IMG/VR virus record: IMGVR_UViG_3300006065_000007
Coordinates: 20,459 to 84,458 of that record
Length of the DNA stretch: 64,000 bases
Reading direction: 5' to 3' (one strand)
DNA from: a virus
Made by a program: the position numbers and the translations under genes. Shown in pieces: positions 13,441 through 22,032 of the stretch (position 1 is its first letter; each line of letters opens with the position of its first letter). Below the pieces are notes generated by a model, which saw nothing but the letters and a program-made list of their open reading frames with translations, was not told where the DNA came from and ran no database searches.

Positions 13441-13761
13441 TCAAATAAAAGGATTGTTATTAAATTCTAAAAACATTAATGTTTCTTCAATTTTTTTACA
13501 ATCTGTTAAAAATAAAACTTCATCCTTTATAGATAAATTAAACCATTCACCCTCTTTTTTTAAATGTGAATACTTTCTATGTAAACTTTTTTCAACCTTA
13601 TTTGAATATTCACTTAAATAAGTTTCAACAATTCTTAATTGAAAAGGATTTCCTGTTTGTAATTCTTTTAAACGTTTTTGTGGGTCTTTAGCAATTCCTA
13701 TTTTGTAAAGACCATTATCATCATCTTTTATTAAATATGTGTACCTTTTTTTAATTAGCAT
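13441..13761 (-). CDS. GIY-YIG/T5orf172-like protein
   Basis: YTYLI..YKIGIAKDPQKRLKELQTGNP...EKSLHRKY...GEWF. Confidence 0.8.
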   Translation of the reverse strand: MLIKKRYTYLIKDDDNGLYKIGIAKDPQKRLKELQTGNPFQLRIVETYLSEYSNKVEKSLHRKYSHLKKEGEWFNLSIKDEVLFLTDCKKIEETLMFLEFNNNPFI

Positions 13762-15637
13762 TAGTATATGCCCTTGCTTCTTTTTCTTCTATTAATGTCA
13801 TTATATCTGAGTCTCTTGCAACAGCTCTCCAAAGTGAATCAATCATATTACCTGACGGTTTATGTATCATTTCTATTGTTACATGTTTGGTTTCAGATGT
13901 TGTAGTTGTTGGTGTTGTATTAGACTGGGTTGTTATTTGTTTGTTATTTACTGGTAAAGTAGATGGTACTATCGGTTGTGATATACCGAATACTTCTTTT
14001 AATTCGACTATACCATCACTAATTAATTTCATACCAAAATCAGAAGATTGAACAAGTAAATTAGCACCTTGATTAAACAAATCCCTAGTAAATTTAGTTA
14101 TGTTATTTTGATCAACACCCATACCTTTTAAAATTTCTGACATATCACTAGCGGCTGTTACTTTAGCTTTTGCAGCAATAAATGTTACATCTCGATTTAT
14201 ATTTTCAATCAACCCAACTTGTTTTAATATAATATCTTCAGAACTCATCTTTTTAAAAGCATCTTTTTGTTCTTTTAAAATATCATATTGTTTTTGACTT
14301 AAATCTATTAAAGGAATTTCTTTTTTACCATCAAATACTTCACCAAATTGTTTTTGTAACGTTTCAGGTATAGTAATAGTCATTTTACCATCTTTCATTT
14401 GAGAAAGATTAGTTAAAAATTCTTTATCGTCTTCATCTATATCTCGAATTCCAGATAACATTAAATCATAAGATGCTGATGTTCTTTGTGCTGATTGAAC
14501 AGCTAAATTTGATAATTCACCCAATGACATACCTAATTGTTCTGACATTGCACGTGCTCTTCTTAAATCTGCACCAATTATTTTAAATGTTCCTGATTTT
14601 TGTTCAAATGTTACTAAACTTTCTGCACTTTTTACAATAGCATCTTGTAATCCTTCAACATTGTTAGTTGCCATCCACATCATCTTTATTGGGTCATTAA
14701 AATCACCTAATGCACCACCAATAACTTGTAATTCTGAAGCTAATGATAATGCTTTATCTGGATCCATTACCTTTTCTGCTAAATCTAAAGTTCGGGTTAA
14801 GTCAAAACGTAAAGATTGTGCTTGTCTTGTCATTTTACTTAAACCTTCAATACCATTTTTAAAACCATATTGATTTACTTTTTCTAAATTATCTACTATT
14901 GTTTTAACAGTCGTTTTAGCATTTAAACCTAATCCTAATGTTCTTAAACCTACACCTTCAATAACTTTCATAGCGTCGGATGCACCCATAGAAACTTTTT
15001 GAAATTCTTCTAATGATTCAACACCAACATTTAAATTATCAAAAAATGCTCTACTTTGTATCGCTAAATTTTCAATCGTTTCTGTACTCAATAATTTAAA
15101 CCTACCCGAACTTTTAATTAATGTTGCCATTGATTCTGATAATTCTTCAAAACTATAACCAATTTGTTCAGCAACGGGTAAAGCTTCCATTATTTCTCGT
15201 CTCCATGCTCTAGATAATTCACCAGTTAATGATGTTTCTTCATTAATTTTTCTATGTAAGTCAAATTCTTGTTGCATTTGTTCTAAAATCTGACTTTTAA
15301 AAAAATCACCTATTCTTTTACCAATAGAAGGTCCATCTTCACCTTGATTTCTAAACACATCAACAATATCAGTTAAATTTATTTTTTCAGGGCTTGATTG
15401 GTATGAACTTTGTGCTTTTAACATCTGTGTTATAAAAGGTTCTGATGAATTAAAAGTTGTTCTTTTTTTTGGATTTTTACCTGATTTCCATTCATCAAAT
15501 TTTGATTCTAAATAAGGTACATCAACATCGTCAGCATCAACACCTAACGAAACTTCACGTTGAATTGCAGATATAACAAAGTTTCGTTTATTGTTTCTAT
15601 TATTACTAAAAATATTATATAATGATTCTATATCCAT
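13751..15637 (-). CDS. Tape measure-like tail protein
   Basis: 628 aa, helical, LQVIGGALGDFNDPIKMM-type block; downstream of tube and chaperone genes. Confidence 0.7.
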   Translation of the reverse strand: MDIESLYNIFSNNRNNKRNFVISAIQREVSLGVDADDVDVPYLESKFDEWKSGKNPKKRTTFNSSEPFITQMLKAQSSYQSSPEKINLTDIVDVFRNQGEDGPSIGKRIGDFFKSQILEQMQQEFDLHRKINEETSLTGELSRAWRREIMEALPVAEQIGYSFEELSESMATLIKSSGRFKLLSTETIENLAIQSRAFFDNLNVGVESLEEFQKVSMGASDAMKVIEGVGLRTLGLGLNAKTTVKTIVDNLEKVNQYGFKNGIEGLSKMTRQAQSLRFDLTRTLDLAEKVMDPDKALSLASELQVIGGALGDFNDPIKMMWMATNNVEGLQDAIVKSAESLVTFEQKSGTFKIIGADLRRARAMSEQLGMSLGELSNLAVQSAQRTSASYDLMLSGIRDIDEDDKEFLTNLSQMKDGKMTITIPETLQKQFGEVFDGKKEIPLIDLSQKQYDILKEQKDAFKKMSSEDIILKQVGLIENINRDVTFIAAKAKVTAASDMSEILKGMGVDQNNITKFTRDLFNQGANLLVQSSDFGMKLISDGIVELKEVFGISQPIVPSTLPVNNKQITTQSNTTPTTTTSETKHVTIEMIHKPSGNMIDSLWRAVARDSDIMTLIEEKEARAYTNAN

Positions 15638-15657
15638 AATATATAATAATAAATATA

Positions 15658-15798
15658 TTATTTAGAATTTTCTAATTCAATAATATATTGAACAAAATAT
15701 CTTCTTTCATAAACAGGCATACTCATTATATCACCATATGAGAATCCTCTTTTTATTAAAAATAAAATTTCATCTAATTGTCCTTTTTTATATTCCAT
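15658..15798 (-). CDS. 46 aa GT-type tail chaperone extension ORF (absent from track), in the +1 frame of the upstream gene
   Basis: MEYKKGQLDEILFLIKRGFSYGDIMSMPVYERRYFVQYIIELENSK; overlaps the upstream stop; fills the gap before the tape measure gene. Confidence 0.7.
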   Translation of the reverse strand: MEYKKGQLDEILFLIKRGFSYGDIMSMPVYERRYFVQYIIELENSK

Positions 15799-16537
15799 AG
15801 AAAGGACGAAAAAACTCAACCCCGAGTCCAACTTCAATTTGGACTGTATCTCCGGACGGGGTAATTACTTGTTGTGTTAAATCTAATCCAGGTTTATTTT
15901 GTTTAATATATTTTCTAAAATCTTGTGAATCTTTAATAGGTAATCTTTCAATAAAATTTCTTATATTCATTGAATCTTTATTTCCTTCTATTGATTTTAT
16001 CATAAATTCTAATTCTTTGGTTACCACAGGTGCAACACCAAGACCATTCCAACTTTCTTTTATTTTTTCAATTTCCATTTCTTGTTTTTTTGTTAAAAAC
16101 TTAAATGTAATATTTACTTTACTAAGTTCAAAATAATATGGGTATTCACCATTAACATCTGGTGTTAACGTAAAATCTTTAACTTTTAAAGTTGATAAAT
16201 CAATAACACAAGGAAAAAATTTTTTTGTTTTTGGGTCTAAAACTTTCATGTTATATGAAGGACCCCAAGCAGTGTTTCTTAAAAATATTAAAATAGCCTG
16301 TCTATCTTCTTCTACAATATCCTCTATTAATAAATCCTTATCAATAACTTTTCTTCTTAATAATTCATCAATCACAGTATTAGATTGAATTAAATTTGAT
16401 GATGATAAAATATTTTCATCTGAAGCAGTTAAATATGCTATTTTAACAGATTTTTTGTTATTGGTGTAATGAATACCTTTACTTGGTAACTCTACAACAT
16501 CATAAGCAATCGTTGGGTCAATTCTATATTCTTCCAT
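15788..16537 (-). CDS. Tail assembly chaperone / T4 gp26-like baseplate hub assembly protein
   Basis: YDVVELPSKGIHY...TASDENIL...GVEFFRP; lies between tube and tape measure. Confidence 0.7.
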   Translation of the reverse strand: MEEYRIDPTIAYDVVELPSKGIHYTNNKKSVKIAYLTASDENILSSSNLIQSNTVIDELLRRKVIDKDLLIEDIVEEDRQAILIFLRNTAWGPSYNMKVLDPKTKKFFPCVIDLSTLKVKDFTLTPDVNGEYPYYFELSKVNITFKFLTKKQEMEIEKIKESWNGLGVAPVVTKELEFMIKSIEGNKDSMNIRNFIERLPIKDSQDFRKYIKQNKPGLDLTQQVITPSGDTVQIEVGLGVEFFRPFYGI

Positions 16538-16761: not shown

Positions 16762-17250
16762 TTAATACACCAGAATACAACGATCCATACGTAAATTACA
16801 AGTAATATTAGCTATAGCATCATTACTATAATCTAATTCACCAAAATTAAGACCTGTTATAAACGTTCCCACCAAAATCCATTTTTCTACAACAACACCT
16901 GATGGATCTAACATTTCAATTTCAATATCTTTTTTATACCCAGCAGCGTAACCCATTCTACCAGTAACGGATTCAGCATGTAATCTGAACCACTCCATTA
17001 GAGCTTGTGACGCTGAAGGACCAATTGGGTCTTTAAATGTTACAGTTATTTCTTCCCATACGAATCTTCCAGCAACATATGTTGATGTATTCAAAAATGG
17101 AATTTCAACCGGATTTATTTTAGGGTTCGGTCTTGATGCTGATGTAACAAACCATTCGTTAATTCCTAATGATGAAGGGAATCTTATAATAAATCGGTTT
17201 ACTCTTTTCGGTTCAAATGGAACCGGCATTTTCATTAATAGATCTGCCAT
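16762..17250 (-). CDS. gp19: Tail tube protein (gp19-like)
   Basis: FEPKRVNRF...YVAGRFVWEEITVTFKDPI...W.L.G.F....FGELDYS; follows sheath. Confidence 0.9.
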   Translation of the reverse strand: MADLLMKMPVPFEPKRVNRFIIRFPSSLGINEWFVTSASRPNPKINPVEIPFLNTSTYVAGRFVWEEITVTFKDPIGPSASQALMEWFRLHAESVTGRMGYAAGYKKDIEIEMLDPSGVVVEKWILVGTFITGLNFGELDYSNDAIANITCNLRMDRCILVY

Positions 17251-17585: not shown

Positions 17586-19115
17586 TTAACATTTTAATTC
17601 AAATTTCATTGAACCACAATCCCATATTCTATCATAACCATTTTCTTGTATTATTTCCCATTCACTTTTTGTTTTATCAAAACCTTCTTTAATTAATACA
17701 TCTTTTCTAAATTGAAATCTATGTTTTCTATCAGAAAAATTACTACTATGTACATACCAATAATTAGGTGGTGTAATTCCAATAAAAGTAAAACCATTTT
17801 TAAAATAAACAGTACTTTCATAATTTATTCCAGACCATCTAATATCTGCAAATGTTAATATCAATCGTGGTGAATATTTTTTTATAAAGTAAGATAAAAG
17901 TTTAGAAAATGATCCAATTACATTTGTATTTAATTTATTACTAAATCTTAATAATTCATATTCATTTTCAATTTTTGTTTTATTTCCCAATGAATTTCTC
18001 TTTTTTCCAAATGTCATCACGGAAACTAGTTCATTATTATAAAATAACCCAAAACGATATTTATCAACCGAATCTCCTTGAATATGGTTAATAATATTAA
18101 ATGTTTTAGACTCTTTTTTTGTTATTTCTTTTATTGAACACTTTCTAGCATATATCCTATTAGTATTAAGGTTCAACATGTTTGAAATTCTGGAAAAAAC
18201 AATATTTTGTTTATTTTTAATTTCATCCTCAAAAATATGAATTAGTTTAATACCTTTTTCATTAGCAAGTTTTGTTTTATCAATATGGTAATTTTTATCT
18301 TTTAAACCATATATTTCTGAATGAAAATAATTACCATTAATTTCAAACCCTATTGATTTTTCATCTAATAATAAGTCAATTTCTTTTCCGTTTAATTTTG
18401 TTCTATTATTATTAGTATGTACTATATTTTTTTCATTTAGGAAATCTTTTAATATTTGTTCTATACTTGAATTTTTAGTTATAGGATTACATTTTCTACA
18501 TATTGGTATTTTGCCAGAACCTAATAATGTACTACTGAATGTATTATTACAATTTAAACATTTAAAATTATAACTTTTAGATGTATTACCTAACTTATTT
18601 TGTTCATATTCATCTAAAAGAATTAAGTTATGATTTTTTAATTTTTCTAGTAATATTGGTATTTGTTTATTTTTTAACGTTGTTTTTAATTTATCAACAA
18701 AATTATTTACATGCATAGGATGTTTTTGACCATATTTTTTTAAAAAAGATTCTTTCATTTTTTTTTGACCTTCTTTTGTTTTTAATATAGAATCCACACC
18801 ATATTTTTTAAAAATAGATTCTTTTGATTTTTTTATTCTTTTTTCTTTATTAATAGGATTTAAATTCCATTGACTTCTACATTTATCAGAGCATAACTTG
18901 TTTTTTAGTTTTTTTCGTATATTAAATTGTTCTCCGCAATTAACACATTGTCTATTTTCGTAAAAATCGTCTTGTTTGGGTTTACCTTTTATTCCACTAT
19001 CAATGTAACATTTCTGATTACAATATTTTTTATTTCTGAATTTATATTCAGTTTCAAATGTTTTTTTACATGATTGACAAATTAAATTTATTTTCATAAT
19101 AATATGTTTTATCAT
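17586..19115 (-). CDS. Free-standing homing-endonuclease-like protein (Zn fingers + Hef/Vsr-like nuclease) fused to a Mom-like GNAT domain; likely start 19097
   Basis: CxxC..CxxxC repeats, KYGV repeats, EIDLLL..GFEINGNYFHS nuclease motif, then IYARKC..NHIQG..GLFYNNELVSVMTFG..YELLRF. Confidence 0.7.
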   Translation of the reverse strand: MIKHIIMKINLICQSCKKTFETEYKFRNKKYCNQKCYIDSGIKGKPKQDDFYENRQCVNCGEQFNIRKKLKNKLCSDKCRSQWNLNPINKEKRIKKSKESIFKKYGVDSILKTKEGQKKMKESFLKKYGQKHPMHVNNFVDKLKTTLKNKQIPILLEKLKNHNLILLDEYEQNKLGNTSKSYNFKCLNCNNTFSSTLLGSGKIPICRKCNPITKNSSIEQILKDFLNEKNIVHTNNNRTKLNGKEIDLLLDEKSIGFEINGNYFHSEIYGLKDKNYHIDKTKLANEKGIKLIHIFEDEIKNKQNIVFSRISNMLNLNTNRIYARKCSIKEITKKESKTFNIINHIQGDSVDKYRFGLFYNNELVSVMTFGKKRNSLGNKTKIENEYELLRFSNKLNTNVIGSFSKLLSYFIKKYSPRLILTFADIRWSGINYESTVYFKNGFTFIGITPPNYWYVHSSNFSDRKHRFQFRKDVLIKEGFDKTKSEWEIIQENGYDRIWDCGSMKFELKC

Positions 19116-19212: not shown

Positions 19213-22032
19213 TTAAACGTTTTCAAATGATGCACCGGTAGGTGTAATTATAAATTCAACATCTATAAATTCTAAGGAACGAGTAGGTTTAATATATATT
19301 TTACCCCTCAAAGTATTAGCATCGATATCTTCTGGATCATTTGATACTACAACTCTAAAATCGTAAAGTCCTCTTTCTTTTTTAATTGAATCCAATATTG
19401 GATTAACCAATCTTAAAAATTCATTTCTAACTTGTTCATCATTCTGTTCAAACAATAATCTTACTGCAACAGCAGAAATAAGTTTTCTTGTTCTTAACAG
19501 TAATCTACGAACATTTATTCTATCGAGTGCTGATTCTCTGATTTGTAGTGTTTTGTTACCCCAAATAATAGTACCTGTATCGGCAAAAGTTGCAATTGGG
19601 TTAATTCTATTTTTATATAATTCATCCCTTTCTTCTAGAGTTAGTTTTTTAAATGCTTTAATTGATTTAACTAAACCTCTAGAATAACCAGCTACTGCAA
19701 ACCAAGGATATGAAACATTATCGGTTAAAGCAATATTTCTTACTACTTCACCAGTAGGTGATACATATAATTGTGCAGAATTATCGTTATCCCTAACTTG
19801 TATCCAAGGCCAGTATGTTGCCGAATAGTTACTATCAAGATTAGCTAAATCCAATTCATTTACAACTTCAGATGATGTAGTAACATTAGGTGAATTTATA
19901 ATATAAATTGAATCTGCTCTATCATTTTCTATCATGTCAATAGTTTGTGATACTAATGAAGCTTGATCACGGAAATTAATACCGGGTGTTGCAAAAATAT
20001 TTATATCAACAGCTTCTGGATTTGAAAAAGTTTCAATACCTTGTAAATATGAATAATAATCAGAATTACCATAATTTGGATTAAAAACACCTCCGTTCTC
20101 TGTAGTACCTGAAATATATTGTTTTTGACCAAAGATATAACCATCACTATTAGTTCTAACTTTTCTATAAACATCCCAACCATCAAAACCACCAGCAACT
20201 GCAAATGTAAATTTACGATATGAAATAGAATTCAATTTTCCTTTATCTGAACCTTCTAAGTCATAAGGTGTTGTATCAAACATAAAACCAGTTGCGGTTG
20301 CAGAATTAACAATTGTAGAAGCATTTTTTGATAAATGAAAACCTGTTGTTAATTTAGTAGTATCTTTTCCTTTATATCCAAATAAACTGTTATCATAACC
20401 AACAGAAGATGACATACCTAAAGAAACACGTCTTGGTTTATCTTCCATTGAAGATAAAACTGGTTCACCAGTAATCATATTAATTTTACCAGTTTCTTGT
20501 CCTGCGTTATAATATTCAGTTTTATATTCAATACCACCCAATATTGTTCCGTCTAATTCTTTAGTCAAATAACCTTTAAAACCAGCTGGAATTACATCTA
20601 CTGGATGATTTTCTTCCATTGATAGAATAATATATTTAGAACGTAATTCATATTCACCATCAAGTGTACCAATTTTTCTACCAATATAACTAGGTAAACT
20701 AGGATTCATTGAACATCTTGAAAATTTTTCTAAAACAACCATATTTTCATCAGTATCATTGAAATCACGAACTAAAACATCAAATTCTAATTGTTCAAGA
20801 TCAATATTTAAAATAGTAATTTTAACTTGATAATTAGCTGAATTACCATCTGAAATTGTTGATACTTCAAATAAATCAGAAACACTATCACCACGAACTT
20901 CAGAAACTACCATAGGTGATGTTGCTTTAAAAATATGATATAAGTTAGATGATGTACTTCCATCTAATAAAAAATCTTGTTGATCAAAATGATAAACTGG
21001 ACTAACACTTAATCCTCTTATTAAACCTTTTTCATACAATGATTTTAATACTTTTGGATAAACTTCAAAAACATAAAGAGGAAATGAACTTATATCTTTA
21101 TCATAAGGTTCAGTACCAAAAACTTTAGTAATATATTTTGGCGAACTAGGATTTAATGAACAATTATATGTTATTGATTGTTTTAGAAGTAAAGTAAAAT
21201 CATCTAGTGGGTTGGTTTCAATTGATGTTGAACCTGTTATTTGTACATCTGGTTGTGTAGTTATTTCAAGATTCAAGGTTTCACCTGAATATTGACCTCT
21301 AGATCTAAGAGTAACTACACAAATATTACCATATTCATTTTCTGTGCCATCATATGAATATCTAGTTATGTCAAAATCAACACCATTATAAATAAATAGA
21401 AATGAATAAACTTTACCTGTTACACTATCATAAAATGTATTTTTCCATAATTCTTCATTTGAAACGATTGGACTAGAAAGTTGATTTCCAGTTAAACCAC
21501 TAATATATTCTTCAGGAACTAAACCAATAGTAAACCAATTATCAGTAATATAAGTTTTACCAGTATCAGTTATATAGTCATATATAGTTTGACCATTAGT
21601 AGCTGTTTTACCTGTTAAATATAAAACCTCATCACTATTAATTGATAATCCTGATTCTTCAATATAAGTTTCAACATCTAATATATTTATACCGGCAAGT
21701 GTTTTAACACCATATGTTGTTCCACATTTAAATCCTGTTAAACCTAATACTCTTGTTACAAACAATTGATTAGATTCTTGTAAATAGGATTTTGCAACAT
21801 ATGGTAATTCATATTTTGGGTTACCGTTTCCATCCTTTTCAGGTGATGTAGTACCGAAAAATGTTCTAAATTCGTCGAAATTTGTTATTAATACGGGTTC
21901 AAATGCAGGACCTTTTAATGTTTCACCTACTAAACCCAATGTTGTTACCCCAACGCTTTGAGCAACAAATGTTAAATCTTTTTCTGATGTATATACACCA
22001 GGTGATACAAATACTTTGTTTGAGTTTGCCAT
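19213..22032 (-). CDS. gp18: Tail sheath protein (gp18-like)
   Basis: VSPGVYTSEKDL..GETLKGPAFEP, YWPW, PWFAVAGYSRG, LYKNRINPI, WGNKTLQ, LDRINVRRLL. Confidence 0.95.
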   Translation of the reverse strand: MANSNKVFVSPGVYTSEKDLTFVAQSVGVTTLGLVGETLKGPAFEPVLITNFDEFRTFFGTTSPEKDGNGNPKYELPYVAKSYLQESNQLFVTRVLGLTGFKCGTTYGVKTLAGINILDVETYIEESGLSINSDEVLYLTGKTATNGQTIYDYITDTGKTYITDNWFTIGLVPEEYISGLTGNQLSSPIVSNEELWKNTFYDSVTGKVYSFLFIYNGVDFDITRYSYDGTENEYGNICVVTLRSRGQYSGETLNLEITTQPDVQITGSTSIETNPLDDFTLLLKQSITYNCSLNPSSPKYITKVFGTEPYDKDISSFPLYVFEVYPKVLKSLYEKGLIRGLSVSPVYHFDQQDFLLDGSTSSNLYHIFKATSPMVVSEVRGDSVSDLFEVSTISDGNSANYQVKITILNIDLEQLEFDVLVRDFNDTDENMVVLEKFSRCSMNPSLPSYIGRKIGTLDGEYELRSKYIILSMEENHPVDVIPAGFKGYLTKELDGTILGGIEYKTEYYNAGQETGKINMITGEPVLSSMEDKPRRVSLGMSSSVGYDNSLFGYKGKDTTKLTTGFHLSKNASTIVNSATATGFMFDTTPYDLEGSDKGKLNSISYRKFTFAVAGGFDGWDVYRKVRTNSDGYIFGQKQYISGTTENGGVFNPNYGNSDYYSYLQGIETFSNPEAVDINIFATPGINFRDQASLVSQTIDMIENDRADSIYIINSPNVTTSSEVVNELDLANLDSNYSATYWPWIQVRDNDNSAQLYVSPTGEVVRNIALTDNVSYPWFAVAGYSRGLVKSIKAFKKLTLEERDELYKNRINPIATFADTGTIIWGNKTLQIRESALDRINVRRLLLRTRKLISAVAVRLLFEQNDEQVRNEFLRLVNPILDSIKKERGLYDFRVVVSNDPEDIDANTLRGKIYIKPTRSLEFIDVEFIITPTGASFENV

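Follow-up and report, generated by a model that had tools for sequence, protein, structure and literature searches.

The closest described systems are the tail assembly chaperones of phages lambda (gpG/gpGT) and P2 (gpE/E+E'), which were reportedly treated by Levin et al. in 1993, by Christie et al. in 2002, and by Xu, Hendrix and Duda in 2004. Studies of both pairs are cited in PMC7230728 and PMC12859696. In phage T4, gp26 and gp51 are listed as hub assembly chaperones (Leiman et al., PMC3004832, Table 2). According to a summary in PMC10885494, Vladimirov et al. (2022) read this pair as chaperones encoded by a short gene and a longer, fused gene, and in another summary (PMC12846349) the same work also involves poly-T slippery sequences. 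In our comparison, T4 gp26 (208 aa) consists of the PF12322 domain only and ends ...KEFFELL*, at the position of the shift site considered below, and T4 gp51 (249 aa) consists of PF12322 (residues 1-201) and a 48-aa tail.

In bacteria, a programmed shift in the +1 direction is known from prfB, the gene for RF2, in which the ribosome slips at CUU_UGA with the help of an upstream Shine-Dalgarno-like stimulator. On sense codons, we know of few conserved +1 shifts in bacteria and their viruses. An established +1 motif, UUU_CGN, is that of plant amalgaviruses and of influenza A PA-X, where it occurs as UCC_UUU_CGU (PMC5052127); the PA-X work of Firth et al. (2012) is cited in PMC7230728. The HF1 haloviruses have two coding sequences between the tube and tape measure genes, for which a +1 shift at a conserved TTT-CGC has been proposed (PMC7230728). 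Here we describe a gene in an uncultured phage, and a large set of relatives, in which a programmed +1 ribosomal frameshift in a gp26/gp51-type chaperone gene very probably yields a short and a long chaperone, as judged from comparative sequence data.

Results

Gene order in the tail module

The source contig, a phage genome, is 136,948 bp long and has a G+C content of 27%; the window is the whole stretch of 64,000 nucleotides of it that was analysed. The tail genes of the window all lie on the (-) strand, in the order tail sheath, homing endonuclease, tail tube, 249-aa gene, short overlapping ORF and 628-aa gene:

19213-22032 (-), tail sheath gene
17586-19115 (-), homing endonuclease, 509 aa (phrog_3339, E 1e-109), with a weak Mom-like match at its C-terminus
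16762-17250 (-), tail tube gene, gp19-like (phrog_4542 'tail tube protein', E 7e-26; PF06841 at its cut-off), directly upstream of the 249-aa gene
15788-16537 (-), short form (TAC-N), a gp26-like hub/tail assembly chaperone ORF of 249 aa from the ORF list, ending ...GVEFFRPFYGI*
13751-15637 (-), presumed tape measure gene of 628 aa, directly downstream, named solely from its position and size

The two neighbours of the 249-aa gene are not known equally well. The upstream tube gene is identified by profile. The 628-aa gene has no match in Pfam, PHROG or NCBIfam and no BLAST similarity to the tape measure protein of phage immuto or to T4 gp29, so that its 'tape measure' label rests on position and size. 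The original prediction of a tail chaperone located before the tape measure gene is thus borne out as far as a PF12322 (T4 gp26/gp51) protein following the tube gene is concerned, and its second half is a positional assignment. The window, Flavobacterium phage immuto and Microcystis phage Mel-JY01 all have, in this order, a sheath gene, a tube gene, a PF12322 gene, a small +1 ORF and a tape measure gene (presumed in the window); in the annotations of the latter two phages, the PF12322 gene and the small ORF are listed apart, as 'baseplate hub subunit' or 'hypothetical'.

Some further features of the module were observed. The homing endonuclease gene (17586-19115) is an insertion between the sheath and tube genes, which adjoin in relatives. 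A T5orf172/GIY-YIG-like gene of 106 aa (13441-13761, (-)) overlaps the final 11 nt of the presumed tape measure gene; like the endonuclease, it resembles a selfish element inserted into the tail module, and it is the second of its kind there. The presumed tape measure ATG is preceded at 5-12 nt (window 15638-15657), in every locus of the window's clade (L003-L052), by a short motif, (C)TATTTAT (cf. TATTTATA near starts), which may be a promoter-like or start-context element.

Identity and structure of the 249-aa protein

The 249-aa protein scores 24.9 bits against PF12322 (T4_baseplate; T4 gp26/gp51), only just above the gathering cut-off of 24.5, and matches phrog_150 'baseplate hub' with E 1.3e-8. 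Relatives linked to it score much higher against PF12322 (P0249, 71 bits; the short paralogue of L166, 63 bits). It has approximately 2000 homologues, and those in GenBank are named 'baseplate hub subunit'. A nucleotide search of the 2 kb around the shift site against a phage collection gave no match. The CxxC pairs of relatives and of T4 have been lost in the window's clade.

Structure models were of good quality both for the 249-aa protein (pLDDT 87, pTM 0.79) and for P0249, a natural long form described below (pLDDT 93, pTM 0.88), in which the extension is modelled as three helices (residues 227-243, 250-254 and 258-281), all at high confidence. Foldseek against the PDB returned nothing at E <= 0.001, with the HK97 chaperone 2ob9 at E 0.9. 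An exhaustive structure aligner returned the same top three for both models, namely 3fgx_B, the HK97 tail assembly chaperone 2ob9_B and the prophage protein YqbN 3klu_A, all as weak matches (Z 4.6-5.6, rmsd 3.3-4.2, 77-89 residues aligned). The modelled structure of the PF12322 protein is therefore compatible with a chaperone fold in a weak but repeatable manner that proves nothing. These chaperone-like structures match opposite halves of the two models, C-terminal (residues 125-223) in one and N-terminal (1-96) in the other. The fold may therefore be present twice in the protein, the PF12322 domain being an internal duplication around a zinc-ribbon-like insert.

Overlapping frames and the probable shift site

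The 249-aa gene ends GTT GAG TTT TTT CGT CCT TTC TAT GGA ATA TAA, and on re-reading the sequence this end and the slip site at 15814-15806 proved to be exactly as originally described. The features at the junction are:

15865-15867 (-), TAA, the nearest upstream stop in the +1 frame, read from the sequence
15806-15814 (-), shift site UUU_UUU_CGU, both TTT codons being invariant in the clade
15788-15808 (-), dual-coding overlap, read as R-P-F-Y-G-I-stop in the 0 frame and V-L-S-M-E-Y-K in the +1 frame
15796-15798 (-), ATG in the +1 frame, a candidate independent start, judged not to be the conserved route
15658-15807 (-), +1-frame C-terminal extension of 49 codons and a stop, giving in a modelled fusion the 292-aa long form (TAC-NC)

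The 0-frame stop TAA is at 15790-15788. The +1 frame is open from 15864 to its stop at 15660-15658, includes the ATG at 15798 and encodes ...SFFVLSMEYKKGQLDEILFLIKRGFSYGDIMSMPVYERRYF..., as had been predicted. The prediction that the -1 frame stops early also agrees with the sequence: this frame is open only from 25 nt ahead of the 0-frame stop to 14 nt beyond it. The extension would replace the 6-residue 0-frame tail, with predicted products of 249 aa (short) and 292 aa (long). An open +1 frame of at least 40 codons past the stop is found for 24 of the 109 ORFs of the genome, mostly through an overlapping next gene; openness alone is therefore no evidence, and significance has to come from comparative data.

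An in-frame TTT_TTT_CGN occurs only once among the ORFs of at least 150 aa in the genome. Codon use per 1000 is 4.9 for CGU, 2.8 for CGA and 0.5 for CGC, compared with 24.5 for AGA, and the phage tRNA genes include tRNA-Phe and tRNA-Trp and lack tRNA-Arg. Ten tRNA genes are clustered at 98612-102630 of the phage's own genome, outside the window, among them Phe(GAA), Trp(CCA) and two unusually long genes (Lys, 88 nt; one Met, 84 nt).

Neither RNAalifold on 11 sequences nor a single-sequence fold revealed RNA structure at the site beyond that of shuffled sequences (z-score 0.73, no covariation), and no Shine-Dalgarno-like element is conserved across clades. A local hairpin in the window, GUCCUUU...AAAGGAC, was discarded as it is broken in L050-L052.

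Conservation of both frames across relatives

Loci of four clades were fetched from IMG/VR and other collections and every junction was analysed by script, giving 99 unique junctions. A long extension is present at 93 of these, and at all 93, in all four clades, the conserved peptide (FF.L..EY...L.EI...GF...D...MP...R.Y) is encoded in the +1 frame. Between the upstream +1 stop and a point 10 codons past FF, 69 of the 93 are devoid of a start codon (ATG, GTG or TTG). Two lineages have a +1-frame TAG close to the 5´ side of the U-run: in L003-L005, it is found two codons before the run and 26 nt before the 0-frame stop, and in L144-L152 it precedes that stop by 20 nt. This confines the frame change to the 20-26 nt that hold the U-rich site.

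The pattern of variation changes accordingly along the gene. In the window's clade, nucleotide entropy averaged by 0-frame codon position is 0.37/0.23/0.86 over the 100 codons that precede the site and 0.93/0.50/0.28 from 14 to 50 codons downstream, so that beyond the site the wobble position is that of the +1 frame. The 61 sequences of the marine clade switch in the same way. The second frame thus overlaps the end of the first, lacks a conserved start of its own and is conserved as a protein.

The conservation of the slip motif at the nucleotide level, put forward originally as a check, is found at synonymous positions. Both TTT codons of the site are invariant in 20-21 unique sequences of the window's clade, as is TTT_TTT_CGN as a whole, and Phe codons further upstream are 76% TTT and 24% TTC. 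Hence UUU_CGN is in frame, is kept where synonymous change is possible and places a little-used codon in the A site. The 0-frame tail RPFYG[IL] is likewise kept in the clade. Its CCT and TTC codons are invariant, and CGN, TAY and GGN vary at the third position only, from which it follows that the short product is also under selection. Purifying selection acts on both tails.

Two observations on other sites deserve mention. In the A+T-rich L059 clade, all 61 unique sequences have CGA as the Arg codon that immediately precedes UUU_UUU_UGG, a synonymous-site conservation that is unexplained by the coding frames. L169 (about 1500-1790) and L170 read GAT_TTC_TTC_TGG_CCC and have no UUU_Y; their +1 frame extends some 17 codons further and is followed by a second FFG(I)TLEYK motif. 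If any shift site exists in these two, CCC_G is the candidate.

Natural fusions, paralogues and split genes

An extension profile built from alignment A1 was searched against 1.84 billion representative proteins and gave 273 hits, mostly small ORFs called separately. In four proteins of 288-308 aa (P0172, P0221, P0240 and P0249), the PF12322 domain and the extension are joined in a single frame. These fusions came solely from the profile search; a word-based search for in-frame fusions in close relatives gave none. The contigs of two of them, P0172 and P0249, were fetched, and in both the long gene is located immediately behind a short PF12322 paralogue that ends ...FFWPDA* or ...FMWPNVS*, a tail shared with the 0-frame products. 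The point at which the short and long paralogues diverge is exactly behind FF, where the short continues W-P and the long G-L, which is TGGCCT read in two frames. A different arrangement is seen in L154 and L160, where the extension is a separate, ATG-started gene in another frame with about 20 extra N-terminal residues. The upstream gene here has TTC_TTG or TTC_CTT, and UUU_Y is gone. Loci that need a shift thus have the slippery site, and those that can do without one lack it.

These arrangements bear on the possibility that two separate proteins are made and no fusion, the small ORF being translated alone, either as a 46-aa peptide from ATG 15798, which was the alternative named in the original prediction, or from a TTG further upstream; termination at TAA 15790-15788 might be coupled to such a start. 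The ATG lies 8 nt before the 0-frame stop, TTG codons are present upstream in the +1 frame of the window phage, and L154 and L160 demonstrate that the small domain does exist unfused. The missing Shine-Dalgarno site says little in this respect, since the host probably belongs to the Bacteroidota and does not use such sites. However, just 5 of the 16 unique sequences in the window's clade retain ATG 15798, the others having ACG or GGG; the TTG is TAG, TGG or TCG in relatives, this TAG being the one that closes the +1 frame in L003-L005; and three sequences of the clade are among the junctions without any start, even though the peptide is conserved from FF on. With no conserved start codon, independent initiation fails the conservation test, and the natural in-frame fusions also speak against it. 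We consider separate translation very improbable.

The extension was further compared with the tail of T4 gp51. The extension HMM against T4 gp51 alone gave a non-significant match (E 5.6), and hhalign of a profile of 92 gp51 tails with the extension profile gave E 1e-4 and a probability of 58% over 36 columns. On these profile comparisons, it is likely but not firm that the gp51 tail and the extension are homologous. The T4 gp51 homologues (P0274-P0365) have a precomputed Pfam family, PF28602, beside PF12322, and this family may describe the gp51 tail.

Direction and mechanism of the probable shift

The site differs between clades. It reads GAG_UUU_UUU_CGN in the window's clade and CGA_UUU_UUU_UGG in the marine clade, one sequence of which has UUU_UUA_UGG. 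Other variants are GGY_UUC_UUU_UGG, AGC_UUU_CUU_UGG in immuto, AAC_UUU_UUU_UGG in Mel-JY01 and AAC_UUU_CUA in a 484-kb uncultured phage. Going by these sequences, +1 re-pairing of the P-site tRNA-Phe, from UUU to UUY, is the sole event that fits every site; in immuto, a prfB-like slip from CUU to UUU is also possible.

The original prediction had left the long form to either a +1 or a -2 shift. In a -2 slip, tRNA-Phe would move back two bases within UUUUUU, and the product would contain one extra Phe (EFFFVLS...). The same frame is reached, re-pairing on UUU is perfect in GAG_UUU_UUU_CGU and CGA_UUU_UUU_UGG, and within the window's clade alone -2 fits as well as +1. It does so only for clades with six or seven U, however. 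In GGY_UUC_UUU_UGG, a -2 move lands on UCU, with a +1-frame TAG directly 5´, and at AGC_UUU_CUU_UGG, AAC_UUU_CUA and UUU_UUA_UGG, re-pairing is possible at +1 only. Moreover, the short and long paralogues part exactly after FF with no added residue. A shift is thus supported as predicted and +1 accommodates all clades; that -2 is the direction used seems to us very unlikely.

The T-runs also raise the possibility of transcriptional slippage, by which RNA polymerase would drop one U in the T6 run such that some mRNAs encode the long form in frame. Runs of T6-T7 are found in the two largest clades, but such lengths are short for efficient polymerase slippage, and other clades keep the arrangement with TTTT only (TTC_TTT_TGG) or with interrupted runs (TTTCTTT, TTTCTA, TTTTTA). 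Because of these four-U and interrupted runs, polymerase slippage is unlikely in the clades concerned, and for the locus as a whole we regard it as a very unlikely explanation. Finally, that one gene has been broken by assembly error or recent mutation is hardly credible and is already contradicted by the conservation data: the error-ridden L060 and L168 illustrate how loss of one T from the run creates an apparent in-frame fusion, but approximately 100 unique sequences from many samples retain the 0-frame stop together with its conserved tail and the +1 extension, and the best 120 of about 2000 homologues are all 248-250 aa. The in-frame fusions on L060 (1490-2400) and L168 were discarded as assembly errors, these contigs being full of frame breaks; they are most likely due to homopolymer sequencing error, and apparent fusions of this kind need checking.

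Under the preferred reading, a programmed +1 ribosomal frameshift, the majority of ribosomes would stay in frame and produce the 249-aa short form ending RPFYGI. Some would slip with tRNA-Phe (anticodon GAA) in the P site on the second UUU and CGU in the A site. The tRNA on UUU 15811-15809 would re-pair with UUC 15810-15808, GUC 15807-15805 would be read next, and translation would run to 15658, giving 292 aa that comprise residues 1-243 and 49 new residues starting VLSMEYKK. CGU, an Arg codon used five times less than AGA in the phage, would fit a slow A site. It is only moderately rare, and since other clades carry UGG, CUU or CUA after UUU, the clades have no 'hungry' A-site codon in common. 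If the two forms act as lambda G/GT and T4 gp26/gp51 do, the tape measure protein would be coated by the short form, and the small helical domain added in the long form would serve to recruit a further tail or hub component. We infer the ribosomal nature of the slip and its efficiency, as well as the roles of the two forms, which are modelled on the same lambda and T4 pairs.

Discussion

The locus shares with the lambda and P2 chaperones its position between the tube gene and what is here a presumed tape measure gene, two overlapping frames, a second frame without a start and a conserved slippery site. As in these phages, there would be a short major and a long minor product, predicted here from sequence. 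The differences concern direction and proportions. The predicted shift goes forward, +1 on UUU_Y, where theirs is -1 on XXXYYYZ, and the site falls outside the canonical -1 class. The common part is approximately 240 aa (PF12322) compared with about 100-140 aa, the added part is just 49 aa, and the match of the window protein to chaperone structures is weak, with Z about 5. With respect to T4, the difference is one of gene organization: T4 has two genes on opposite strands, away from the tube gene, whereas the window has one gene and a predicted frameshift.

Other known +1 systems resemble the site in different ways. The HF1 haloviruses have what is apparently the same gene position, and the same shift direction and TTT_CGN motif, and both cases are predictions only. 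They are, however, archaeal viruses, most clades of the present family use UUU_UGG and not UUU_CGN, and the likeness described is one of position and motif. PA-X and the amalgaviruses share the re-pairing of P-site tRNA-Phe from UUU to UUC before a little-used CGN, with no requirement for RNA structure, but depend on eukaryotic ribosomes and concern unrelated genes, and they cannot be members of the family. The likeness to prfB lies in the +1 slip of a P-site tRNA onto a U-rich codon, and the CUU_UGG of immuto resembles CUU_UGA. Here, in contrast, the A site holds CGU or UGG and not a stop codon, the position of the 0-frame stop varies and no Shine-Dalgarno-like element is conserved, which sets the site apart from the prfB type. 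Shine-Dalgarno-like sites are also absent from the genes of this phage in general.

A search of the literature, in which Vladimirov et al. (2022) is represented by summaries, gave no report of PF12322 genes with a +1 shift. The finding does not amount to a new kind of system: it has the logic of lambda G/GT within the T4 gp26/gp51 family, takes the less common +1 direction and is apparently unannotated. One possibility that we put forward tentatively, and do not favour, is that the window belongs to a very large family of +1 shift sites on sense codons, unannotated to date, with UUU_Y followed by UGG or CGN and then CCU, in phages of Bacteroidota-type hosts that lack Shine-Dalgarno sites, and with no need of RNA structure or a stop codon. 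The stimulator in such a family might be the nascent ...V-x-F-F peptide or the subsequent Trp/Arg-Pro codons.

In conclusion, hundreds of phage and metagenome records, including immuto and Mel-JY01, list a 'baseplate hub subunit' and a small hypothetical ORF where the evidence points to one gene with two products. This extends the rule of short and long tail chaperones to the T4 gp26/gp51 family, in which one need appears to be met in three ways: by +1 frameshift, by gene duplication with tandem short and long paralogues, and by gene split. A broad family with natural site variants (UUU_CGN, UUU_UGG and CUU_UGG) would be useful test material for recoding. If the large +1 family is real, it would show in nature how +1 shifting evolves and gives way to other arrangements, with three interchangeable solutions to compare.
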